Source: a virus
Lineage: Duplodnaviria; Heunggongvirae; Uroviricota; Caudoviricetes
Length of the DNA: 11,520 nt
Virus record (IMG/VR): IMGVR_UViG_2579778535_000015
Reading direction: 5' to 3' (one strand)
Made by a program: the position numbers and the translations under genes. Shown here piece after piece: positions 627-11,520 of the stretch; the stretch's first letter is position 1, and each line of letters begins with the position of its first letter. The notes under the pieces are model-generated. The model was not told the DNA's origin. It did not search any database and saw only the letters and a program-made list of their open reading frames with translations.

Positions 627-1115
627 TCAAAACAGCCCTTTAACGGAGCTGGCCGCGCTGTTAAGGGATGATGTGACCTTATCTTTGAAGCCGGACAGCA
701 TATCACTGAACGATGAGGATTGCAGGCGCTCCCGCAAATCCTCATCACAGCGTTCAAGAGTCAGTGAAAATTCTATCTTTTTCGCCTTACCGTAGCGATC
801 AAACTCGGAGCGGGTCGTATTCGTTTCAGTCAGTACATACATGCCGTAAATCTGTCCGACGCCATCAATCAGAGGCCAGGGGCGTCCTGTATACGCCTGC
901 GTGGTCAGCAGCGACAGCGACACTTCGCCACCTGTGATTTCAGGATAAAGCACACCAGAAAGCACGATGCGATCATCGCCTGCCCCGATATACTGCCAGC
1001 TTGCTGAACGGTTAACGCGTTCATTTTTCACATGCCGCCAGCTTTTATTTTGCTGTAACTGCTGATGCGGCAATGTGCGCAGCTCAAAAACAAACATGCC
1101 GTAGATCATCATCAT
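627..1115 (-). CDS. U: P2 gpU-like tail protein
   Basis: Minus-strand ORF (six-frame track 627..1121). The N-terminus MMMIYGMFVFELRTLPHQ is typical of GpU-family proteins. Lies immediately downstream of the tape measure gene, matching P2 T-U order. I place the start at the ATG at 1115 (minus) because a GAGGAG Shine-Dalgarno lies about 8 nt upstream; the start could be 1121 or 1112. Confidence 0.8.
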   Translation of the reverse strand: MMMIYGMFVFELRTLPHQQLQQNKSWRHVKNERVNRSASWQYIGAGDDRIVLSGVLYPEITGGEVSLSLLTTQAYTGRPWPLIDGVGQIYGMYVLTETNTTRSEFDRYGKAKKIEFSLTLERCDEDLRERLQSSSFSDMLSGFKDKVTSSLNSAASSVKGLF

Positions 1116-1127
1116 GGCCATGACTCC

Positions 1128-3971
1128 TCAATCTTTATCGTAAAAACTGCCACGTCCGGCACGGTCGCGTCGTTCCAATTCTGCCCTGACCATTTCACCG
1201 ACCAGTTTCGCCAGTTCGCGGGGATTCTGCGTAACAACGTTATGCAGATGAACATGAATTTCACCGCCAAATCCGGAGACAACAGGCTCCCGGTTACGGG
1301 AAGTTGCAGGAACTGATGCCACTGGCGATCGTATGGCCTCCACCACCGGGCGGGAGCTGGCCGCAACAACAGGGACCAGCGCCGGAGGCAGAGGAGTCGG
1401 GACCACGGGTGTGATGTTGATTGCGGAAGCAGGCTTACTGACCTGCGCAATCTTCCGCTCCTGCCACTCCCCACGAACAGCAAGTGCGCGGGGCAGGTTC
1501 TTAAAGACAATATCGCCGGGGCCAATGCGTTTTTTCGTCTCATCAACCAGCTTACCTGTGTTATCAGCAATTTTGCTGAGTCTGCGTAGCGTACCGGTAT
1601 TGCTGTCTGTGAGCGGTTTGTTGTCTTTGGGTTTATCACCTCCGGTGCCATTGCCATTTTCCACAGGCTTCGGCGGATTGATTTTCGCCAGGTCCCCCTG
1701 AAGCAAGGCAACCTTGTCCTGAAGAATGGCCGCACGCTGTGCGTCTTCGATTTTCTTGCGCGCCCTTTCCGCTTCATCCGGAAGGACGCCAAGTTTTTCA
1801 AGTATCCACGCCAGCGTATCCAGTAGCATTTTTGCAGGCGTCAGAACAAGTTGTAACGCACCGCCAAGAACGTTACCGAATATCTCGCCAGCACTGGTAC
1901 ATTTATCCAGCGTTTCCTTGCTGGACTCCATCGGTGACAGCAGCGATTTAAACCAGTTAAACACCTGGCTGATCCCGCTTCCGATTGCGTCAAAAACAGG
2001 ACCAAACCGTTCAAAGGTTTCGCGCAACGGGGCCAGCCTTTCCATAATCCCGCTGAACACCCCGGCAAAAAATGCCCTGATGGGATCCCAGTATTTCCAG
2101 ATAAGAACGGCAGCTCCGGCAAGCGCAGCCACGATAAGACCAACCGGACTGAACAGCGCCCCGATAGCACCTCCCAGCAAAGAAACGGAACCCGTCACCA
2201 TTCCCCATAGTGCTGGCAGGACCCTGACAGCATTCATTGATCCGGTCAGGAGAGAAAAACCGAGACGTAACGTAGCCAGCTTCCCGTGAAGCACCCCAAT
2301 AACCAGAGACAACGAACCAACCGTTGCTGCTGTCGCCAGCAGTGCACCTCCCGCTATCAGTAACTGGCGCGTCAGTGCCGGATGGGCCTGCGCCAGTGCC
2401 GTCACTTTTGAGACCACCCGCGTGAGCCACTGCGTGACAGAACGCAGCGGACCGTCAATCAGATCTGCAATGCGGATGCGCAACCCTTCCCATGCACTGC
2501 CGAGTGATTTCAGATCGCCGTCAAGGTTGTTGGCCATAACCTTTGCTGTGCGTTCAGCCTCACCGCGCGCGCCTTCAAGTTCTTTTCTCAGTTTGGGTAA
2601 GGAACCGTCACCCGCTGCATCAACGAGCGCCATAAACGATGTGAAAGCCTCTTCTCCGGCAATGTCCTTAAAGAACGATACCCGGTCAACTTCCCCGTAT
2701 TTGCGGGTGGCTTTATAAAGGTCGGCCAGCACATCCTCCATCGGGCGCATTTTGCCCCCGGCATCCGAGACGGACACGCCCAGCTCTTTCAGAGCTTCTG
2801 CCGCCGCCTTTGGCGGTGATGCCAGACGAGCCAGGCTGGCACGCATTGCCGTCCCGGCATCACTCCCTCTGATGCCCATATTCGCCAGCACGCCAGCCAT
2901 CGCTGCGGCCTGCTCCAGCGATATTCCCAGCTTACCCGCCACCGGACCTGCATATTTCATGGTTTCACCCAGTGCGCGAAGGTCAGTGTTGGTACGGGTA
3001 AACGCTGCGGTAAGTGTGTCACCGACCCGGTCCATCTGGTCAGCAGAAAGGCCGAACTGCGTCAGGATATTTGAGCCAATATCCGCCGTCTCGCCGAGAT
3101 CGATACCGCCAGCCGTTGCCATGCTTAGCACGCCGGGAAGCGCAGCCTGAATGGCCTGCGGAGTAAAACCAGCCATTGCAAGAAATGCCTGTCCACTGGC
3201 GGCATCGCCTGCGGTGAACTGCGTTTCAGAGCCAAGTTTTAACGCCTGCTCACGCAGCGCCTTAAACTGCGGGCTGTTCTGGTCAATTCGCGTCAGCGCC
3301 TGAACGCGGGACATCTCTTTCCCGAACCCGATCGCGGGCTGCAAAAAACGCCCGGCAGCATAGCCGCCCGCAGCTGCTGCACCAATTGCCAGCGCACCAC
3401 CTGTTTTCAGTTTTCCCGCTGTTTCCTGCGCGCGCGAATACCGCTCACGCGCCCGCGTTACACGCGCAAGCGCCTGCCGTTCGCGTTCAAGCTGGTTGTT
3501 GTACTGTTCGGTGCGTCTGATGGCCTGCTGGATGGTGTTATCGCTGCCTGTCAGGGAAATGCCGTGGCGTTTCAGCTCTCCGCCAAGTTCCCGCATTTTC
3601 TGAATTTCCCGTGTGCGCGATTCATTCAGGCGTTCAAGCCGGGTGCTTAACTGCTGCATCAGCTTTTGTTGTTTTTCGCTGAGCACTGTACCCGTGCGTT
3701 GTAACTGATTAAGGGCGTTAAGCTGGCGTCGTGCTTTCAATATGCCAGCATCCGCTTTACTGACAGCGTCACGGGCGCGCTCAAATGAACGCGCCTGACG
3801 CTCGAGATTTTTGATCGCCCCCTGAGTTCGCTGGATGGAGTCACCAAACTGCCCCATCAGGCGGCGGGCGTTTTCGGCAGGCCGGGTCAGCCTGTCAACG
3901 GCGCTGAAAGCGACCCGGATATCAAGAGTCTTCATTGTCTGCATTCCCGCTGCGAAGTGCCGCCCGCTCAC
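1128..3971 (-). CDS. T: Phage tail tape measure protein (P2 gpT-like)
   Basis: 947-aa minus-strand ORF between the E/E' chaperone gene and U. Long helical N-terminal half rich in Q/R/E/L/A, hydrophobic Gly/Ala-rich central segments, C-terminal region. The 5' end overlaps the E' frameshift ORF as in P2. Exact start uncertain: GTG at 3971, or in-frame ATG at 3944 or 3935. Confidence 0.85.
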   Translation of the reverse strand: MSGRHFAAGMQTMKTLDIRVAFSAVDRLTRPAENARRLMGQFGDSIQRTQGAIKNLERQARSFERARDAVSKADAGILKARRQLNALNQLQRTGTVLSEKQQKLMQQLSTRLERLNESRTREIQKMRELGGELKRHGISLTGSDNTIQQAIRRTEQYNNQLERERQALARVTRARERYSRAQETAGKLKTGGALAIGAAAAGGYAAGRFLQPAIGFGKEMSRVQALTRIDQNSPQFKALREQALKLGSETQFTAGDAASGQAFLAMAGFTPQAIQAALPGVLSMATAGGIDLGETADIGSNILTQFGLSADQMDRVGDTLTAAFTRTNTDLRALGETMKYAGPVAGKLGISLEQAAAMAGVLANMGIRGSDAGTAMRASLARLASPPKAAAEALKELGVSVSDAGGKMRPMEDVLADLYKATRKYGEVDRVSFFKDIAGEEAFTSFMALVDAAGDGSLPKLRKELEGARGEAERTAKVMANNLDGDLKSLGSAWEGLRIRIADLIDGPLRSVTQWLTRVVSKVTALAQAHPALTRQLLIAGGALLATAATVGSLSLVIGVLHGKLATLRLGFSLLTGSMNAVRVLPALWGMVTGSVSLLGGAIGALFSPVGLIVAALAGAAVLIWKYWDPIRAFFAGVFSGIMERLAPLRETFERFGPVFDAIGSGISQVFNWFKSLLSPMESSKETLDKCTSAGEIFGNVLGGALQLVLTPAKMLLDTLAWILEKLGVLPDEAERARKKIEDAQRAAILQDKVALLQGDLAKINPPKPVENGNGTGGDKPKDNKPLTDSNTGTLRRLSKIADNTGKLVDETKKRIGPGDIVFKNLPRALAVRGEWQERKIAQVSKPASAINITPVVPTPLPPALVPVVAASSRPVVEAIRSPVASVPATSRNREPVVSGFGGEIHVHLHNVVTQNPRELAKLVGEMVRAELERRDRAGRGSFYDKD

Positions 3972-4140
3972 GCCAGCTAACCACTTCGCCGGGCGTCATC
4001 ATGAAGATTTCGGCGGGCGACCAGTTAAAAATGGCGGCAATATCCGCCACAAAGTCTTCTATGTGCTCAAAGCACACAACCGTGATCAGGCTTCCGTCGC
4101 CTGTTCGTTCTTCCCGCCAGAGTCCGCACCGCTCAAAAAA
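3922..4140 (-). CDS. E': gpE' extension, expressed as E+E' fusion by -1 programmed frameshift
   Basis: The -1 frame ORF (track 3922..4158, minus) is entered exactly at the slippery heptamer inside gpE. After the slip the reading continues ...VNFF-ERCGLWREERTGDG... to a stop at 3922, overlapping the start of T. This is the conserved P2-family E/E' arrangement. Confidence 0.6.
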   Translation of the reverse strand, partial: FFERCGLWREERTGDGSLITVVCFEHIEDFVADIAAIFNWSPAEIFMMTPGEVVSWRERAALRSGNADNEDS

Positions 4141-4451
4141 TTTACGGCAACCACACATAACTGAATAAAGTCACGGGATGCCATTTTTTTGATCGTCACT
4201 TCATCCAGTCGCGGTGATGTCACGCGTGACAGCAGCGTAAACATGGATTCCGCTTTCAGATTCAGCACATCAGACAGCGACAAATCTCGCAGAGATCCAG
4301 CCTGCTCAATAGCCCCGGTGATCTCCACATACGTGATTTTTTCGCTGCCTCGCTCAATGGGTTGGGTAAGTTTTACGCCACGCTCACTGGTTTCTTTCAC
4401 AGTGTCAGCAACTACCGTGTTTTCGGTATCGATGTTTTTCGTCTCTTTCAT
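4086..4451 (-). CDS. E: Tail assembly chaperone (P2 gpE-like)
   Basis: 121-aa minus-strand ORF between FII and T. AAGGAG Shine-Dalgarno 7 nt upstream of the ATG at 4451. Contains the internal slippery site that feeds E'. Position and size fit the P2 gpE family. Confidence 0.8.
   Translation of the reverse strand: MKETKNIDTENTVVADTVKETSERGVKLTQPIERGSEKITYVEITGAIEQAGSLRDLSLSDVLNLKAESMFTLLSRVTSPRLDEVTIKKMASRDFIQLCVVAVNFLSGADSGGKNEQATEA
4134..4140 (-). other. -1 programmed ribosomal frameshift slippery heptamer T_TTT_TTG (gpE/gpE')
   Basis: Plus strand 4134-4140 is CAAAAAA, so the minus strand reads TTTTTTG. In the gpE zero frame the codons are AAT TTT TTG (N-F-L), giving the X_XXY_YYZ phasing. 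The -1 frame from this point is open for 71 codons. Confidence 0.65.
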
Positions 4452-4505
4452 CAGGAAACTCCTTTCAGTCAGAGGCGACGCACTGCGCCGCCTGCATATT
4501 ACTTA

Positions 4506-5018
4506 TCAGCCAAGCCCGAGCGCGGAACGGATGCGATCGGGCACAATGTCCTTGCCGTCCTTCCGGTAAATGAAGTTCAGCAGGTCAATCTCCCACAACG
4601 GGCGATCGTTAACACTCAGCTTGTAGTAGGTGTTTTTAATGGCGTAAGTGTGTGATGTGGCTTCGCCCTGTTTGGCTTCCCCCATATCAATTTCCGTCAC
4701 ACGTCCGCGCATTTCGACTTCATACAGGTCGCTTTCTGCATCGGTGTAGTATTCACCCGCAAAACGCAGCAGCGTGCCGTCAATCGTGCCGCCATACTTA
4801 AGGAACAGCTCACGAACTGCGCCCCCCATGACAAAGCTCGCATCAAGCGCGGAGTCATCCAGGCCGAGATCAATACTTACCGCTCCCATCATGCCACCAC
4901 CCCGGTAGCTGTCGGTTTTGCGCGTCAGCTTAGGCAAAGTGACGGACGTCACCTTACCCACTTCGTTTTCACCATCCACAAACAGCGTAAAAAAGCGAAG
5001 ATGTTTTGGCACAGCCAT
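4506..5018 (-). CDS. FII: Tail tube protein (P2 gpFII-like)
   Basis: 170-aa minus-strand ORF. Its start codon overlaps the FI stop (minus strand reads TGATG) and is preceded by GGGAGGTG. Size and position directly downstream of the sheath gene match P2 FII. Confidence 0.88.
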   Translation of the reverse strand: MAVPKHLRFFTLFVDGENEVGKVTSVTLPKLTRKTDSYRGGGMMGAVSIDLGLDDSALDASFVMGGAVRELFLKYGGTIDGTLLRFAGEYYTDAESDLYEVEMRGRVTEIDMGEAKQGEATSHTYAIKNTYYKLSVNDRPLWEIDLLNFIYRKDGKDIVPDRIRSALGLG

Positions 5019-6202
5019 CAGGCACCTCCCAGCACCGCAAATGCGGGTTCAAAGTATTCATCAGTAAACGTCTGGTAAAGCTCCATGTCTTCCAGTGGCG
5101 GAACGGGCGTATATTTGTAGCGAATACGCACACGCCCCTGACGTAAATCCGTGGTGCTGTTATCCACCACGTCATACCAGCACGACGCGCCAATCAGTTT
5201 CCCGGCAGTAACCAGTGAATCCAGTTTTGCCCTGATGGCACTGATAACATCCTTCACGTTCGCAGGCGTCAGTGGACTGTCGATGGTTTCAAACTGCGCT
5301 TCCGCAATTGAATCAGCCAGCACCTGTGCGGTTCGGGTATACACCTCAAAAATGTAGGCGTTCGTTTCCGGTGTGCGGTTGCCCCAGAAGCGGAACCCGT
5401 TGCGACGAATAATGGTCGTGATTTCTTTGTTGTTGAGGCTGTTGGCATCACTGTCTTCGGCCTGCAACGACCAGAACACATGCCTCGACATCCCCAGCAC
5501 ATTTTTAACCGGAACGTTGGACAGCGATTTGTGCCAGCCCTGCTCATGGTCAATGTACGCACGAAGGCCGCACGCATAAGCAGGCGCGGGGAACGTTTCG
5601 TTTTCGCCACTTTTCGGGTTGTAGGCGATGAAGTCCGGCCATAAGAGCATTACTTCACGTTCGTTGAATTTCTGGCGGTAGGTAATCGCTTCAGCCATCG
5701 TGTTACAGCCGTGACATGAGGCATACACAAACGCGCGAAGTTTACCCGCAATCACGCACAGGGATTTTGTCACCGCCTCCGTGTCCAGCTCCGGCGCGGC
5801 CAGAATACGCGGACGGTATCCGATGCTTTCATCCTGCTCTGCAACAAGCAGCGCATACATCCCCGTATAGCTGCCGTCATCCTCAGAACCACCGATAACC
5901 AGTTGATCCTGCGTCTTTTCGTCTTCTTCTTTGTGTTCAGCCACGCGAACGACGATCACCTTTGTGCTCACCTGGTCTGCGATGGCCTTAAGCGCACGAT
6001 AAAGCGTCCCCGTTGTTCCGCATTTTCCCAGCACGTCATTGACGCGGGTCAGCAGTGTGGGCTTGTTCAGCGGGAACAGCTTCGCGTCCGCATCATCCGC
6101 CGTTGCCACGATACCGATAACGCTGGAATCAACATCGTTAATCGCTGTTACCAGGTCGGTATTTTCCGTAACACGGGCACCATGAAAACGAGTTTCACTC
6201 AT
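5018..6202 (-). CDS. FI: Contractile tail sheath protein (P2 gpFI-like)
   Basis: 394-aa minus-strand ORF. Recalled similarity to P2 FI throughout, for example LNKPTLLTRV, WPDF, HEQGWHKSLSNV, IRRNGFRFWGNRT, YTPVPPLE. AAGGGG Shine-Dalgarno about 9 nt upstream of the ATG at 6202. Confidence 0.9.
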   Translation of the reverse strand: MSETRFHGARVTENTDLVTAINDVDSSVIGIVATADDADAKLFPLNKPTLLTRVNDVLGKCGTTGTLYRALKAIADQVSTKVIVVRVAEHKEEDEKTQDQLVIGGSEDDGSYTGMYALLVAEQDESIGYRPRILAAPELDTEAVTKSLCVIAGKLRAFVYASCHGCNTMAEAITYRQKFNEREVMLLWPDFIAYNPKSGENETFPAPAYACGLRAYIDHEQGWHKSLSNVPVKNVLGMSRHVFWSLQAEDSDANSLNNKEITTIIRRNGFRFWGNRTPETNAYIFEVYTRTAQVLADSIAEAQFETIDSPLTPANVKDVISAIRAKLDSLVTAGKLIGASCWYDVVDNSTTDLRQGRVRIRYKYTPVPPLEDMELYQTFTDEYFEPAFAVLGGA

Positions 6203-6359
6203 AGCTTCAGCCCCTTGTATCCGTTAAATGATTCGGCAACAATCATCACCCACCACGCGCGTAATCTCACCCCTGCGCCGTTCTCCCGCCACGGCGACAA
6301 CAAAAAGCAGTAACCCCCTCCGCACGCACATGCGACCATGCCACACAGGGAGGGAGCAG

Positions 6360-7469
6360 ATGACCGACACCACCATGCAATTGCTCAGTCAGAGCACAGA
6401 CCCCGTGAAAATGCCGGATTTTGATATTCTTGCGGAGGGTAAAACGCTGTCCGGCGTGGCAGAGCGCCTGATGAGCCTGTCACTGACCGACAACCGGGGA
6501 TTTGAAGCAGACCAGCTCACCATCACGCTGGATGATGCTGATGGTCAGTTGCAGTTGCCGCCACGGGGCGCTCGCCTGACGGTTCTCATTGGCTGGAAAG
6601 GCGAACCGCTGACAGAAAAAGGCACTTACATTGTTGATGAAATTGCTCATGAAGGACCGCCCGACAGACTGACCATTTCAGCCAGAAGCGCAGATTTTCG
6701 GGATGAATTTAACGTCAAGCGCGAAGTGTCCTGGCATGATGTGACCGTTGAGCGAGTGGTATCCGCCATCGCTCATCGGTACGGTCTGAAACCGCAAATC
6801 AGCGAAATGCTGATGGATATCGAAATCGACCACGCCGACCAGACCGAAGAAAGTGACATGTCCTTCCTTACGCGCATGGCGGAAATGCTGGGCGCAATCA
6901 CCACGGTAAAAAGCGGTAATCTGTTATTCATCATGCCCGGCGGTGGCGTGAACGCACAGGGCCAGCCGTTGCCATCGTTCGCCATCACACGCAGCAGCGG
7001 CGATCGCCATCAGTTCCGCATTGCGGACCGCGAAGCGTATACGGGGGTACGCGCCTACTGGCTTGATCTTAATTACGGGAAAAAGAAAAAAGTCAGCGTG
7101 AAACGCCGCAAACCGCCAAAACCCAAAAAGGAGAAAAGCAGCAGCCGTGAAGGTGATTATATGGAAGGCGCGGAAGGCAATGTGTTTGTGTTACGCAAGA
7201 CCTATCAGAACGAACAGGCAGCAAGACGCGCAGCGGCGGCAAAGTGGCAGCAACTACAACGCGGAGCCGCATCATTCTCCATCACGCTGGCGCGTGGACG
7301 TGCAGAACTCTACCCCGAAATGCATGGTACGGTAACAGGATTTAAAAGCGAGATTGATAATCAGGACTGGATCATTGCAAAAGCCGAGCACACCATTGAT
7401 AACAGTGGCTTTACCACGCAGCTTGAGCTTGAGGCAAAAATCCCGGAATGGATAGCGGAAACAGAGTGA
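6360..7469 (+). CDS. D: P2 gpD-like tail protein (late control gene D family)
   Basis: Plus-strand ORF (track 6228..7469). I place the start at the ATG at 6360 (MTDTTMQLLSQS...), which follows a GGGAGGGAG Shine-Dalgarno. About 370 aa, immediately upstream of ogr as in P2. The family assignment rests on position, size and recalled sequence character, not on a search. Confidence 0.78.
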   Translation: MTDTTMQLLSQSTDPVKMPDFDILAEGKTLSGVAERLMSLSLTDNRGFEADQLTITLDDADGQLQLPPRGARLTVLIGWKGEPLTEKGTYIVDEIAHEGPPDRLTISARSADFRDEFNVKREVSWHDVTVERVVSAIAHRYGLKPQISEMLMDIEIDHADQTEESDMSFLTRMAEMLGAITTVKSGNLLFIMPGGGVNAQGQPLPSFAITRSSGDRHQFRIADREAYTGVRAYWLDLNYGKKKKVSVKRRKPPKPKKEKSSSREGDYMEGAEGNVFVLRKTYQNEQAARRAAAAKWQQLQRGAASFSITLARGRAELYPEMHGTVTGFKSEIDNQDWIIAKAEHTIDNSGFTTQLELEAKIPEWIAETE

Positions 7470-7511
7470 GGAACTTAGAATAGCGACAGCACCACGTTAA
7501 GGGAGGTCGCT

Positions 7512-7772
7512 ATGTTCCGTTGTCCGCTTTGTGGCGCATCTGCCCGTATCCGCACCAGTCGTCCGGAAAATGATTCAAACACCGTGCGGCAAAAGTATTA
7601 CCAGTGTAACAACCTGGAATGCGGCGTATGCTTCTCAACACTGGAAGCTTTCCATAAATTCACATCGAAACACGCCTCCGGCGTTCACTCATCAGAAGGT
7701 ATCCCGTGGCATGAGCTGCCAGCTTCACACAGGGGAAACAATCAGATGAGTTTGCCTTTATCTCAGAATTAA
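7512..7772 (+). CDS. ogr: Ogr/Delta-family zinc-finger late transcription activator
   Basis: 86-aa ORF starting MFRCPLCGASARIRTSR, with a second Cys pair CNNLEC (C-x2-C ... C-x4-C), matching recalled P2 Ogr (MFHCPLC...CQNVNC). GGGAGG Shine-Dalgarno 5 nt upstream. Directly downstream of D. Confidence 0.85.
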   Translation: MFRCPLCGASARIRTSRPENDSNTVRQKYYQCNNLECGVCFSTLEAFHKFTSKHASGVHSSEGIPWHELPASHRGNNQMSLPLSQN

Positions 7773-8170
7773 CAGGCAGAATTGCCGGAGTAACAAAAAA
7801 AGCGATACACCCATTTACCCGGCAGTACCACTCCCCCGCCCCATAGCTGGCAGTGAGGCGGGATGTTTTGCCTACCCGCCAGCAGGCACCATCGTGGAAA
7901 TATCCAACATTGAAGGACGCCCGGATAAGCCTGTTATCAGGCAAATCTTACCCATCGGTCATAACCTGCCTGATGTAAAGCCCGGCGAACAATTGCAACA
8001 ACAGCGTGCAGAAGTGTTTCAGCATGTCACGACTGACGGAAGCTGGCGCAGAAAAACCGACCAGCAAATCCAAGAAGAAAAGCGCGTAAAACGATCACTG
8101 CTGATGTGGCGTTTCTTTATACAAGCTGCTATTTGCGATATGCTGAACACATCAACCTGTGGAGTGCATT

Positions 8171-8797
8171 ATGAAACAAAAATCAAAGTCTGCTGCCATT
8201 GCTGCTATTGCTACAGCTCTGACAGCATCACTGGCTCCGGTGCCAGCTAAAAGCACGATACTACCAACAACAGTTATTGAATCCGTGACACACGCCAGAG
8301 TGGTTTCAATGCTTACATTTGAGCATCATGATGGTCAGGTGTTTCTGCCTCTTGAAGAAGCTATTGAATATATCAACGGGCTGAATGACAACATGCGTGC
8401 CGCGCTCAATGCAGTCATTGAAGAACGACAGAACAGAGGCAAGGGAGCTCTGTTTGCTGACAAAACCGCAAAAATCATAAAAATATGCGAAGAGTCACTT
8501 AAGCAGCACAGCCGTGTTAAAGAGGCTGTCAAAATTGTAATGGATCCGGATAACCTGGCAAAAATGTATCCGGATAGCATGGAGCAAAGAATCGCCTATC
8601 GCAATAAACTGGTTCGTTTTGGTCGGGCAATTGCGCAGGGAGAGTTTATCGCTCGTGATGCCATCAACGCCATCAAACGAAGCACCGCACCAGACAAAAC
8701 GACCAGCCTAGGCAATACGCTGTCTGACGGAAATGTGAAAGCAATGATTATTGCCGAGCATAAAAACATGGGACTCCCGGCACCGGAGTTTTCCTGA
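8171..8797 (+). CDS. Hypothetical protein, upstream partner of the YafO-like gene; possible N-terminal signal peptide
   Basis: ORF in track as 8159..8797. I prefer the ATG at 8171 (MKQKSKSAAIAAIATALTASLAPVPAKS...), which has GGAG 6 nt upstream. About 208 aa, predicted mostly helical, no family recognised by eye. Its stop overlaps the next gene's ATG (TGATG at 8795-8799). Confidence 0.55.
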   Translation: MKQKSKSAAIAAIATALTASLAPVPAKSTILPTTVIESVTHARVVSMLTFEHHDGQVFLPLEEAIEYINGLNDNMRAALNAVIEERQNRGKGALFADKTAKIIKICEESLKQHSRVKEAVKIVMDPDNLAKMYPDSMEQRIAYRNKLVRFGRAIAQGEFIARDAINAIKRSTAPDKTTSLGNTLSDGNVKAMIIAEHKNMGLPAPEFS

Positions 8798-9177
8798 TGG
8801 CAAGCAAAGTAAGCATTCATAAAGATGTTGAATACCAGGACATTGCAAAAGTTTACGGAAAGGCTCTGGAAAACTGGTTAAATACCGGTGTTCTCCCTGA
8901 CAGATTCGGCAATGAAGGGCAGTGGGAAGATAACGCAAGATTATGTGGTTCGTTTGTATATAAATTACACATAAGACTACCGTCAGAACCACCATGGAAG
9001 AAAAGCAAAGCCCAAATAGACAGAACTTCAAATATCTATCTGGTTTATACAAGGCACTGGATGGATTATGACAATATACAAATCATCAGCATCATGGCCC
9101 CAGATGCTCACGAAAAAGCCAAAACTTCTTTCATGGCTGAGCTGGAAAGACGGGCAGAAGAATTCCAGAACTCATAA
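8797..9177 (+). CDS. YafO-like toxin-domain protein (type II TA toxin family, ribosome-dependent mRNA interferase)
   Basis: 126-aa ORF. Recalled E. coli YafO shares GVLPDxFG, the HIxL block, the stretch RTSNIYLVYTRHWMDYDNIQIISIMAPDAHEKA (YafO: RTNDEAHLVYCQGAFDEQAWLLIAILKPEPHKLA) and a C-terminal MAE..R..F. Start is translationally coupled to the upstream ORF. Followed by a strong intrinsic terminator. Confidence 0.62.
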   Translation: MASKVSIHKDVEYQDIAKVYGKALENWLNTGVLPDRFGNEGQWEDNARLCGSFVYKLHIRLPSEPPWKKSKAQIDRTSNIYLVYTRHWMDYDNIQIISIMAPDAHEKAKTSFMAELERRAEEFQNS

Positions 9178-9200
9178 ATTGCCTGATTTTCTCCCAGAAA

Positions 9201-9232
9201 CCCGCAGCGTAAAAACTGCGGGTTTTCTTTTT
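9201..9232 (+). terminator. Rho-independent terminator after the YafO-like gene
   Basis: CCCGCAG (9201-9207), loop CGTAAAAA, CTGCGGG (9216-9222), followed by TTTTCTTTTT (9223-9232). Confidence 0.75.
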
Positions 9233-9256
9233 GGTGCCCTCACAAATGAGGGCACC
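9233..9256. repeat. Perfect 10-bp inverted repeat GGTGCCCTCA-CAAA-TGAGGGCACC
   Basis: Directly abuts the terminator T-tract. No U-tract follows on the plus strand, so it is probably not a second terminator. Possibly a protein-binding palindrome or RNA structure. Confidence 0.4.
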
Positions 9257-9317: not shown

Positions 9318-9361
9318 TTGTTATCATATCGGCAGCAGTAACCACACAAGAGGTGCCGCAA

Positions 9362-9559
9362 ATGACGCAAAATGTACGATGCAAAAATTGCAACAAACTA
9401 CTTGCCCGCGCCTCATTTCACTACATTGAAATAAAATGTCCGCGCTGCAAAACACTTAACCAGATAACGAGAGCCATCGAGCACCCCACACACATGAGGA
9501 GTTATGACCGTGGGGATCGCAATCCAGCACCAACCAGCACATACACCGGAACACACTAA
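9362..9559 (+). CDS. com: Com-like zinc-finger translational activator (phage Mu Com family)
   Basis: Track ORF 9353..9559 begins at GTG. I prefer the ATG at 9362 (MTQNVRCKNCNKLLARASFHYIEIKCPRCKTLNQI...), with AAGAGGTG Shine-Dalgarno 6 nt upstream. Two CxxC pairs (CKNC, CPRC) and a recalled Mu Com-like N-terminal region. The 3' end overlaps the start of the methyltransferase gene by 56 nt. Confidence 0.75.
   Translation: MTQNVRCKNCNKLLARASFHYIEIKCPRCKTLNQITRAIEHPTHMRSYDRGDRNPAPTSTYTGTH
9484..9515 (+). promoter_or_regulatory. Candidate mRNA stem-loop enclosing the methyltransferase Shine-Dalgarno and start codon
   Basis: CCCCAC (9484-9489) can pair with GTGGGG (9510-9515). The 20-nt loop contains GAGGAG (9496-9501) and the ATG at 9504. 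By analogy with Mu, Com binding could open this structure. Stability not computed. Confidence 0.35.
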
Positions 9560-10295
9560 GGTTTATCAGACTGACAATGCCACGCTCTGTCGTGGGAATG
9601 CGCTGGAAATATTGCCGCTGATTGAGCCAGAAAGCATTGATGCCTTAATCACTGACCCACCTTACAGTTCGGGTGCGACACACAAGGCCGGACGCACCAA
9701 CCAGGGCAGCCATGCAAAATATCTGAACGGCGAGAACCTTCACCGCTTTGATGGGTTCGCGGGTGAAAACATGGACGCCCGTTCGTGGGCTTACTGGACA
9801 CAATTATGGATGGCACAGGCACACCGCGCAGTCAGGCCGGGCGGTTATGCCCTGGTATTTACTGACTGGCGACAACTACCAGCTTTAACCGATGCGTTTC
9901 AGGCCAGTGGCTTTACATGGCGCGGCATCATTGCGTGGAACAAAGGGAGGGGGTCACGAACACCACATACCGGGTATTTCCGGCATCAGTGCGAATACAT
10001 CGTCTGGGGCAGCAAAGGCCATTTAGATAAATCGCCTTCGGGACCGTTCGACGGCTGCATGACGTTCCCGGTTATCCCGTCAAAGAAAATGCACCCAACC
10101 GGAAAACCAGAAGAACTAATGGCGGAACTGGTCAGGACTGTGAATAGTGGCGGAACAGTCCTTGATCCTTTTATGGGGTCAGGGACAACGGGTGTGGCTG
10201 CACTGAAAGCAGGACGCAAATTTATTGGTATAGAAACCAGTGATCATTATTTTGATGTAGCAACACAACGGCTCAAAACGGCGATCGAACCATAA
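9504..10295 (+). CDS. Beta-class amino DNA methyltransferase (N6-adenine or N4-cytosine), probable orphan phage methyltransferase
   Basis: 263-aa ORF with motif IV (ITDPPYSSG) near the N-terminus and motif I (FMGSGTTGVAALKAGRKFIGIE) near the C-terminus, the order that defines beta-class amino-MTases. No adjacent endonuclease gene. Start could be the ATG at 9504 or the GTG at 9510. Confidence 0.85.
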   Translation: MTVGIAIQHQPAHTPEHTKVYQTDNATLCRGNALEILPLIEPESIDALITDPPYSSGATHKAGRTNQGSHAKYLNGENLHRFDGFAGENMDARSWAYWTQLWMAQAHRAVRPGGYALVFTDWRQLPALTDAFQASGFTWRGIIAWNKGRGSRTPHTGYFRHQCEYIVWGSKGHLDKSPSGPFDGCMTFPVIPSKKMHPTGKPEELMAELVRTVNSGGTVLDPFMGSGTTGVAALKAGRKFIGIETSDHYFDVATQRLKTAIEP

Positions 10296-10321: not shown

Positions 10322-10524
10322 ACTCTACCTCTCGAAAATGTGGTCACTGCGTGGACATACGCTGATACAAATCCTTTTATATCAATAAATTAAATCTTTG
10401 TTTTTTTCATCAACAAGGATTTTCACGTTTGTGTTACCTGTATGAGACGAGAGTTAACCGGACAAGTGTGCCATAATCTCGCGGCCAGGCATACTTGCGA
10501 AGATTTCAGGTATAAGGATACGTA

Positions 10525-11520
10525 ATGATACAACCTATTTCCGGCCCTCCTCCTGGGCAACCACCAGGTCAGGGAGATAATCTGCCGTCTGGCACGGGCA
10601 ATCAGCCTTTATCCAGTCAGCAACGTACTTCGCTGGAAAGCTTAATGACGAAAGTGACCTCACTGACGCAACAGCAAAGAGCAGAACTGTGGGCGGGTAT
10701 CAGGCACGATATTGGTCTGTCGGGAGATTCACCGCTGCTTTCGCGTCACTTCCCTGCCGCTGAGCATAATCTGGCGCAACGTCTGCTGGCCGCGCAAAAA
10801 AGCCATTCTGCCCGCCAGCTTTTAGCGCAATTAGGGGAGTATTTACGTCTGGGGAATAATCGTCAGGCGGTCACGGATTATATCCGTCATAACTTTGGTC
10901 AGACGCCGCTGAATCAGCTCTCACCGGAGCAATTAAAAACCATTCTCACCCTGTTGCAGGAAGGGAAGATGGTTATTCCGCAACCACAGCAGCGCGAGGC
11001 GACCGACCGTCCTTTATTACCGGCGGAGCACAATGCGCTAAAACAGCTGGTGACCAAACTTGCGGCGGCAACGGGGGAACCCAGCAAACAGATCTGGCAA
11101 TCGATGCTGGAACTTTCCGGGGTGAAAGATGGCGAGTTAATTCCAGCGAAACTGTTTAACCATCTGGTGACCTGGCTACAGGCGCGTCAGACGCTAAGCC
11201 AGCAAAATACGCCGACGCTGGAATCACTACAGATGACGCTAAAACAACCTTTAGATGCCAGTGAACTGGCGGCGTTATCGGCATATATCCAGCAAAAATA
11301 TGGTCTTTCTGCGCAATCATCGCTTTCTTCTGCCCAGGCCGAGGATATTCTTAATCAGCTTTATCAACGGCGGGTTAAAGGGATTGATCCGCGTGTTATG
11401 CAACCGCTGCTTAATCCTTTTCCACCGATGATGGACACGTTGCAAAATATGGCAACGCGTCCCGCGCTGTGGATACTGTTAGTCGCGATTATCCTGATGC
11501 TGGTCTGGCTGGTTCGTTAA
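10525..11520 (+). CDS. flk: Flagellar regulator Flk (tail-anchored inner-membrane protein)
   Basis: 331-aa ORF with Pro/Gly/Gln-rich N-terminus (MIQPISGPPPGQPPGQG) and a C-terminal hydrophobic anchor (ALWILLVAIILMLVWLVR). Length and sequence match my recollection of enterobacterial Flk. AAGGAT Shine-Dalgarno upstream of the ATG. Confidence 0.8.
   Translation: MIQPISGPPPGQPPGQGDNLPSGTGNQPLSSQQRTSLESLMTKVTSLTQQQRAELWAGIRHDIGLSGDSPLLSRHFPAAEHNLAQRLLAAQKSHSARQLLAQLGEYLRLGNNRQAVTDYIRHNFGQTPLNQLSPEQLKTILTLLQEGKMVIPQPQQREATDRPLLPAEHNALKQLVTKLAAATGEPSKQIWQSMLELSGVKDGELIPAKLFNHLVTWLQARQTLSQQNTPTLESLQMTLKQPLDASELAALSAYIQQKYGLSAQSSLSSAQAEDILNQLYQRRVKGIDPRVMQPLLNPFPPMMDTLQNMATRPALWILLVAIILMLVWLVR

Follow-up and report, generated by a model that had tools for sequence, protein, structure and literature searches.

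A mobile prophage cassette joins a diverged YafO-family gene to a distinct partner family: a candidate toxin-antidote module

The segment at positions 8113-9177 of the window (the whole stretch of DNA that was analysed, 11,520 nucleotides) is probably an autonomous, horizontally mobile two-gene toxin-antidote cassette whose antidote represents a new family. A gene for a 208-aa partner protein is followed directly by one for a 126-aa member of the YafO toxin family (Table 1). In the mechanism that we favour, a constitutive sigma-70-type promoter would yield a single mRNA, from which the partner would be translated first; re-initiation coupled to its stop codon, at TGATG, would then yield the toxin. 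If the 126-aa protein acts as E. coli YafO does, it would bind ribosomes, cleave mRNA and arrest translation, with the partner acting as its cognate neutraliser, probably by direct binding. Were the supply of partner stopped or the partner removed, whether by loss of the element, by transcription or translation shut-off or possibly by phage infection, the toxin would be freed and growth would stop, and the result would be abortive infection or a more stably maintained prophage or cassette. We infer the toxicity of the 126-aa protein and its neutralisation by the partner; what triggers the system, and whether it serves defence or stabilisation, we read from context only.

Table 1. Features of the window. 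Positions count from its first letter; empty cells indicate that nothing was recorded.
Feature	Position	Strand	Remarks
DNA invertase	1-600
gpU, tape measure, gpE, tube and sheath genes	627-6202	minus
gpD	6228-7469
ogr	7512-7772
Cargo island (ogr-com slot, P88/Chuche-like prophage)	7808-9197		Bounded by break and resumption of homology to phage Chuche
Tail-spike-like gene relic	7894-8076	+	61 codons; similar to longer intact genes
Predicted sigma-70-like promoter	8113-8144	+	Conserved block upstream of the partner gene
Partner gene (208 aa, candidate antidote)	8171-8797	+	ATG 8171, TGA 8795-8797
Leader-like N-terminus of the partner, codons 1-26	8171-8248	+	MKQKSKS / AAIAAIATALTASLA / PVPA
TGATG stop/start overlap	8795-8799	+	TGA and ATG share base 8797; read from the sequence
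YafO-family toxin gene (126 aa)	8797-9177	+	ATG 8797, TAA 9175-9177
Intrinsic terminator	9197-9236	+	From scan; 11-bp stem with 6 GC pairs and T-run at 9197-9226
com	9353-9559		Overlaps the DNA methyltransferase gene
DNA methyltransferase	9504-10295
flk (chromosomal gene)	10525 to window end

The first-pass annotation had called the second protein YafO-like, and profile searches agree. The 126-aa protein matches the Pfam family YafO_toxin (PF13957) at 96.5 bits (cut-off 25, E=1.1e-27) over profile positions 2-101 of 101, it also matches PHROG 1651, and it already has a name from PGAP. Its score against the NCBIfam YafO equivalog NF007377 is 42.7 bits, below the cut-off of 153, so YafO function cannot be transferred to it by orthology. 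It is 31% identical to E. coli K-12 YafO over 104 residues. By these comparisons it is a diverged member of the YafO family and not a YafO orthologue. Thirteen columns are invariant in a family alignment to which K-12 YafO belongs (G38, S52, H58, I59, R76, L82, V83, I99, P102, H105, A120, E121 and F123), and we regard H58, R76 and H105, common to both, as candidate functional residues. Within its own clade 25 columns are invariant, the His and Arg residues common to YafO among them. The AlphaFold2 (AF2) model is confident (pLDDT 92.8) and shows a RelE/HigB-type fold, the RNase fold of the RelE/ParE superfamily, with HigB2 as its best structural relative. A sequence search of the PDB with the 126-aa protein returned nothing meaningful, including no YafO relative with a solved structure. 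To our knowledge, YafO is among the least understood of the RelE-superfamily toxins, with YafN as the only partner studied, and we are not aware that an active site has been mapped in any member. Ribosome-dependent mRNA cleavage would be an activity of the 126-aa protein by analogy with published work on YafO.

The two genes form a discrete, translationally coupled unit, as had been proposed. The shared base at the stop/start overlap was confirmed in the sequence, and a T(G/A)ATG or ATGA junction occurs in most homologous loci of other genera, with short gaps in a few. Ribosome-binding sites (GGAG) precede both starts, at 8161-8164 (6 nt before the first ATG) and at 8785-8788 (8 nt before the second). 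A predicted promoter precedes the first of the two genes, with a -35 element TTTATA (8116-8121), a 17-nt spacer and a -10 element TATGCT (8139-8144); it falls below the threshold of a generic promoter scan. The corresponding block, TTCTTTATAC...TAT.CT, is found upstream of the partner gene in Buttiauxella, Kalamiella, Enterobacter and Morganella and in the gpD-ogr slot, and across unrelated contexts it sits 25-60 bp before the gene. This conservation suggests that it is the cassette's own promoter. Because the block is kept in unrelated contexts, the mobile unit would comprise promoter, partner and toxin, an autonomous unit with coupled start and stop. Both genes show non-synonymous change well below synonymous change relative to diverged homologues, and are therefore real genes under purifying selection.

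The partner is about twice the usual antitoxin size, and the earlier statement that it is neither of the YafN/Phd type nor a recognisable antitoxin withstood every search that we applied. It gave no credible match in Pfam, NCBIfam, PADLOC or PHROGs, its profile retrieved nothing meaningful from a sequence search of the PDB, and BLASTP against K-12 YafN produced no alignment at E <=100. No Pfam match to a Phd/YefM (YafN) antitoxin, as expected upstream of the toxin in a yafNO-type module, was found. A Pfam scan of 20 diverse partner homologues at E-values up to 5 revealed no recurring family, and none of these 20 members matched HTH, RHH or AbrB families. The AF2 model of the partner is of moderate quality (pLDDT 66), with residues 1-58 at low confidence and long helices across residues 60-200, and a Foldseek search with it against the PDB returned generic helical bundles only, with nothing at E <=0.001. 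Neither protein matches the defence models of PADLOC-DB 2.0. Several of these results count against a toxin-antidote reading: the size of the partner, its lack of a recognisable DNA-binding or known antitoxin domain and the missing PADLOC match, to which is added the lack of an operator-like palindrome at the promoter.

The partner family is small. In a set of 5.8 billion proteins it makes up just 38 clusters when grouped at 90% identity, and an exhaustive profile search of 1.84 billion proteins gave 32 representatives; almost all named members come from Enterobacterales, with one from Vibrio. Conserved blocks include the N-terminal A-L-A-P-V-P-A-x-S, FGRA at 150-153, P174 and a C-terminal block with invariant E196, H197 and L202. 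Many RefSeq entries for the partner carry the name "iron-sulfur cluster assembly scaffold protein SufA". An alignment to K-12 SufA with hhalign had a probability of 1.9% and covered only a 23-residue local resemblance, and no Fe-S family was matched in Pfam; we therefore rejected SufA as its identity, and the RefSeq name is a systematic misannotation. Four short entries with the C-terminal part only (P0044, P0045, P0050 and P0057) may be gene-calling artefacts or contig-end truncations. A Salmonella locus (L039), considered as a natural N-terminal truncation on account of a 68-aa gene call, retains an intact 200-aa ORF; since its truncation is a gene-calling artefact, the locus is uninformative on which part of the partner neutralises the toxin.

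Linkage between the two genes is strict. A scan of one genome per species gave 18 partner loci, 17 of them with a YafO-type gene directly downstream, so that the partner adjoins the toxin in all 17 species loci that retain one; at every intact locus examined, the partner lies directly upstream of a gene from a single YafO clade. The coupled pair occupies at least seven unrelated genomic contexts, among them three slots in P2/P88-like prophages, the ends of other prophages and a bare chromosomal site in Morganella. In the gpD-ogr slot of another P88-like lineage, where the genes are likewise adjacent (partner 52% identical), an 18-bp stretch from the end of gpD occurs as a direct repeat on either side of the cassette; this variant is absent from complete E. 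coli genomes. The pair is also present in the P2 gpA-gpQ hotspot (partner 24% identical, toxin 56%) and, in a different type of prophage, at the ends of the element in Salmonella, where it adjoins Phd-Fic, in Yersinia and in two additional E. coli contexts, where it adjoins Hok or a HEC-04 nuclease (PADLOC match, E=6e-204). In Morganella the cassette stands alone between rne and sbcB with no phage nearby, accompanied by only ~165 bp upstream and ~50 bp downstream. Among 5,426 complete E. coli genomes it was found in 24, each time as a single copy on the chromosome, and it is also carried by one Pantoea megaplasmid; the partner was not detected in the sequenced phages of the phage collection searched, which counts against the toxin-antidote reading. 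The pair thus has the general make-up of a type II toxin-antitoxin module, namely two adjacent, co-directional, coupled genes that move together. Its neighbours are other cargo of a similar kind (hok/mok, Phd-Fic and the HEC-04 nuclease), and its recurrence as cargo of prophages, P2/P88-like and otherwise, makes the cassette a reasonable candidate for abortive-infection defence or prophage stabilisation. An anti-phage role is accordingly put forward as a candidate function.

Patterns of gene decay were assessed across 39 loci, of which 33 retain both genes intact. The toxin is broken beside an intact partner in two (L006 and L012), and is absent, with only a remnant of the partner left, in two lineages (L018 and the P4-like satellite loci L033-35). 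A P4-type orphan that keeps the C-terminal half of the partner is entry P0055. Both genes have decayed in L020, the only locus with a destroyed partner, and the toxin there has also lost its invariant histidines H58 and H105. No locus of the 39 combines a broken partner with an intact toxin, in a census that is small and in which one case comes from a MAG and one from a draft genome, so that frameshifts may be assembly errors. Such one-sided decay is the pattern predicted for an antidote, and together with the strict co-occurrence of the two genes it gives indirect support to a neutralising role of the partner. The toxin is also more conserved than the partner in every comparison (56% against 24% in the hotspot pair above, for example), which likewise suits a toxin and its antidote.

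The N-terminus of the partner had been described as signal-peptide-like, and the resemblance extends to the family. In the window's protein, a positive n-region is followed by 20 uncharged residues, PVPA and then K27. We scored partner-family representatives with a heuristic that asked for a start of net positive charge, 14 or more uncharged residues, mean hydropathy >=1.5 in a 12-residue window and a (P/V)(V/I)PA motif, and the n/h/c leader pattern appeared in 33 of 37. Under the same heuristic the partner shows the Sec-type features of a positive n-region, an uncharged, hydrophobic h-region and small residues at -3 and -1; the Ala at -1 and the Val or Ile at -3 are kept while +1 varies, in the manner of a signal-peptidase I site. 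Between loci, the leader block shows 683 synonymous versus 392 non-synonymous codon differences. This synonymous turnover indicates that selection acts on the block as translated protein sequence, and hence that the ATG at 8171 is the real start. The APVPA motif is retained among partner homologues of 23-25% overall identity, which exceeds what signal peptides usually show and is suggestive of a specific contact with a protein. The conserved N-terminus may be an export or membrane signal or, alternatively, a toxin-binding segment.

The first of these options carries the most serious alternative to the toxin-antidote reading, namely that the partner is truly exported or membrane-inserted through its leader, in which case it would not be a cytoplasmic antitoxin of the classical kind. 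Export would leave it unable to hold a toxin in the cytoplasm, and a real export signal would thus argue against the reading we prefer. One version of this alternative would place the partner in the envelope, where it would serve a separate purpose (superinfection exclusion or sensing, for instance) and would only be co-expressed with the YafO-like protein; another would have it neutralise the toxin as a cytosolic precursor and then be removed by export rather than by proteolysis. The tripartite leader in most representatives, the signal-peptidase I-like pattern and the lack of a detectable DNA-binding domain all fit export, and a signal peptide was recorded by Phobius for a partner homologue, protein 1 of system 123 (Rousset et al., 2022, Table S5B, PMC9122126). 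Against it stand the persistence of APVPA at such low identity and despite synonymous turnover, the lack of room in the cassette for another neutraliser and the one-sided decay, which fits a direct antidote. A further point against export comes from HigB2, to which the toxin is structurally closest: a disordered segment at the N-terminus of the HigB2 antitoxin is what neutralises it. Our literature search for exported or periplasmic antitoxins found no relevant paper and no precedent. On balance we consider export of the partner unlikely, while giving it appreciable weight.

The version with a cytosolic precursor would reconcile a working Sec leader with a neutralising function: the partner would hold the toxin only before export and would be cleared by export instead of Lon/Clp proteolysis. 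We hold this specific combination to be decidedly unlikely. If true, an export-cleared antidote would act as a timer that fires when synthesis stops, through phage-induced shut-off or loss of the element, and export would be a new way to make an antitoxin labile, wiring a toxin-antitoxin module to the secretion pathway.

A further alternative concerns the toxin itself. The YafO-like protein might be inactive or a regulator rather than a growth-arresting toxin, with the pair serving some other joint prophage function. Its shortfall against the NCBIfam equivalog and the scarcity of structural knowledge on YafO, with no structure solved and no active site known to us, leave room for this idea. 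Strong purifying selection with invariant His and Arg residues in the clade, the confident RelE/HigB-type fold, the joint loss of partner and toxin histidines in L020 and the occurrence of the cassette away from any phage in Morganella all speak against it, and we judge it distinctly improbable. That the true antitoxin is a hidden third component (antisense RNA, repeat RNA or a tiny ORF), with the 208-aa protein in an accessory role, is scarcely credible, as nothing positive favours it beyond a weak minus-strand promoter-like site from the scan (8561-8534, inside the partner gene), and it is opposed by the short flanks of the Morganella cassette, by a lack of Rfam matches in the window and of type III-kind repeats in 7780-8180, upstream of the partner gene, and by promoter-like sites in the region that are no more frequent than in shuffled sequence.

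Like E. coli yafN-yafO, the cassette has a PF13957 toxin, about a third identical to that of K-12, encoded as the downstream gene of a tightly spaced pair. Unlike yafN-yafO, its partner has 208 residues, a leader-like N-terminus and no similarity to the 97-aa YafN, and the pair sits in a prophage, flanked by ogr and com, instead of in the dinB-yafN-yafO-yafP SOS operon. It shares with HigB2-HigA2 and other type II modules of the RelE/HigB superfamily the organisation of two-gene operons on mobile elements, but there is no sequence relationship beyond the fold, and the antitoxins of those modules carry HTH or RHH domains of a kind that is not detectable in the 208-aa partner.

A close known relative is system 123, "YafO_toxin", of the P2 gpA-gpQ hotspot, which is listed with 24 occurrences and with a signal peptide predicted for its first protein (Rousset et al., 2022, Table S5B, PMC9122126). 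It has the same two-protein architecture with a YafO-family toxin as protein 2, and its protein 1, essentially our family member P0049, belongs to the same partner family (E=3.6e-18 against the family profile). Its partner is only ~25% identical to that of the window, and it occupies the gpA-gpQ slot instead of ogr-com. System 123 was catalogued but is absent from the table of defence-tested systems (Rousset et al., 2022, PMC9122126). A survey of E. coli counted 13 partner clusters for YafO_toxin, only 8% of them known antitoxins (PMC10790755). A Photorhabdus toxin-antitoxin validation paper was also considered and set aside, as YafO is named there only as a search category (PMC13617665).

Given these records, the suggestion of a novel module stands in part. 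A homologous pair was already present in a hotspot catalogue, the toxin had a PGAP name, and YafO_toxin genes with unrecognised partners had been counted in E. coli; the partner family, by comparison, has no match in the databases. What is new here is that this family has been delineated and tied strictly to one YafO clade, together with the promoter and mobility of the cassette, the one-sided decay and the conserved leader motif. The cassette thus represents a coherent YafO-type clade locked to a different partner family absent from databases, whose leader-like N-terminus is conserved to an unusual degree. Should the partner prove to be an antidote, it would found a new antitoxin family and offer a tractable case of a leader-bearing protein that controls a cytoplasmic RNase.

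The placement of the pair in phage accessory DNA was upheld and can be made more precise. In the window, a P2/P88-like (Xuanwuvirus-type) prophage comes to its end and gives way to chromosomal flk, and the pair lies in a cargo island between ogr and com. By sequence comparison, backbone homology to phage Chuche stops at 7807 and is back at ~9198, and the 1390-bp island stands in place of 383 bp with a hok/mok-like gene in Chuche. This slot holds a hok/mok-like peptide gene in both P88 and Chuche. The cassette and that type I module have the ogr-com slot and the downstream terminator in common, but the hok/mok-like module encodes an unrelated membrane peptide toxin under RNA control. The pair had also been said to end in a strong terminator. 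A terminator is indeed predicted just beyond the toxin gene, but an identical hairpin follows the hok/mok-like gene of Chuche, and homology to that phage resumes at about the same point; the terminator is thus a feature of the prophage backbone that serves any cargo in the ogr-com slot, and lies outside the cassette.

The island also preserves traces of its origin. Upstream of the promoter is a relic of a tail-spike-like gene, annotated as a pseudogene by PGAP, whose 61 amino acids share 66-67% identity with a stretch inside a 559-aa protein in two Enterobacter loci (L014 and L015), where the gene for that protein lies upstream of the cassette pair. In E. coli A2, an intact tail-spike-like gene of ~565 aa is followed by a cassette 98.5% identical to that of the window. 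The match between the relic and the gene preceding this near-identical cassette points to an A2-type prophage as the donor, from which the relic would have been carried in together with the cassette.

The island, a cargo insert carrying the cassette of promoter, partner gene and YafO-family toxin gene, was probably brought into the window's prophage from a different, tail-spike-bearing prophage type. Directly upstream of the cassette lies a relic of a tail-spike-like gene (see table), covered by a PGAP pseudogene at about 7801-8079. Its source gene, of about 560 aa, belongs to that other prophage type, and the import is suggested because an intact tail-spike-like gene precedes the same cassette there, as seen at the Enterobacter loci L014 and L015 and at L041 of E. 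coli A2. Just inside the island's left edge, the copies of an 11-nt motif stand 28-29 nt apart and are accompanied by overlapping imperfect inverted repeats.

Features of the island, its relatives and the prophage end
Feature	Location	Remarks
11-nt motif TACCCGGCAGT, three copies	window 7816-7883	just inside the island's left edge
Tail-spike-like gene relic, 61 codons	window 7894-8076	directly upstream of the cassette
Terminator after the toxin gene	window 9197-9236	counterpart in L002 around 4691-4720
Com-like (phage Mu) zinc-finger ORF (68 aa) and N6/N4 DNA methyltransferase (263 aa)	window 9353-10295	
Direct repeat AGAAACAGAGTGAGCAATT (about 18 bp)	L021 7897-7917 and 9006-9024	flanks the cassette; derived from the gpD 3' end
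489-aa "ATP-dependent nuclease"	L041 6553-8022 (E. coli A2)	after the cassette
Partner homologues named SufA in RefSeq (examples)	L041 5072-5698; L042 4916-5695	

At the other end of the island, the related phage Chuche shares the terminator that lies 3' of the window's toxin gene; in Chuche the gene ahead of it is hok/mok-like. The slot between ogr and com looks like a fixed "socket" that has a terminator of its own, in which one toxin module seems to have been swapped for another. Prophage ends bearing the cassette gather toxin and defence cargo: a Phd-Fic pair adjoins it in Salmonella (L037), a Hok/Gef gene lies at its side in E. coli (L042), and the nuclease that follows it in E. coli A2 has a match to HEC-04, a candidate defence family in PADLOC (E=6e-204).

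Another P88-like prophage lineage (L021) carries a version of the cassette that is 52% identical and is placed between gpD and ogr. The direct repeat around it looks like an insertion footprint, and window 7440-7515 shows the matching empty site.

Many RefSeq members of the partner family, the homologues of the 208-aa candidate antidote, are labelled "iron-sulfur cluster assembly scaffold protein SufA" by PGAP. Alignment with K-12 SufA by hhalign gave a probability of 1.9%, and the likeness is confined to a short stretch (LTFEHHDGQVFLPL versus LLFEHDGAKLFVPL); the name thus looks like a propagated misannotation. In three P4-like satellite contexts (L033-L035), with a Toprim primase, a P2-capsid-type gene and a derepression protein as neighbours, the family is represented by its C-terminal ~100 residues alone, in a 159-aa protein (P0055) with neither a leader nor a nearby toxin gene. 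This protein could be a decayed remnant of the partner, or it could be an orphan antidote guarding the satellite against a helper-encoded toxin.

Beyond the island, the Com-like ORF overlaps the methyltransferase start by 56 nt, a layout conserved in Chuche and similar to that of Mu com-mom, but the enzyme here is a methyltransferase of the ordinary kind and not Mom. Right after the methyltransferase gene the prophage stops (at 10324-10525) and is followed by chromosomal flk (10525-11520); no integrase lies on the flk side, the position of the one in the linear Chuche record. Because the related prophage L023 likewise adjoins flk, this may be a recurrent integration site. At the opposite end of the window, a Hin/Cin-type DNA invertase (1-600) adjoins gpU. 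Within 627-7469, the strand of gpD is opposite to that of the sheath-tube-tape-measure block, as in P88 and Chuche but unlike in classical P2.
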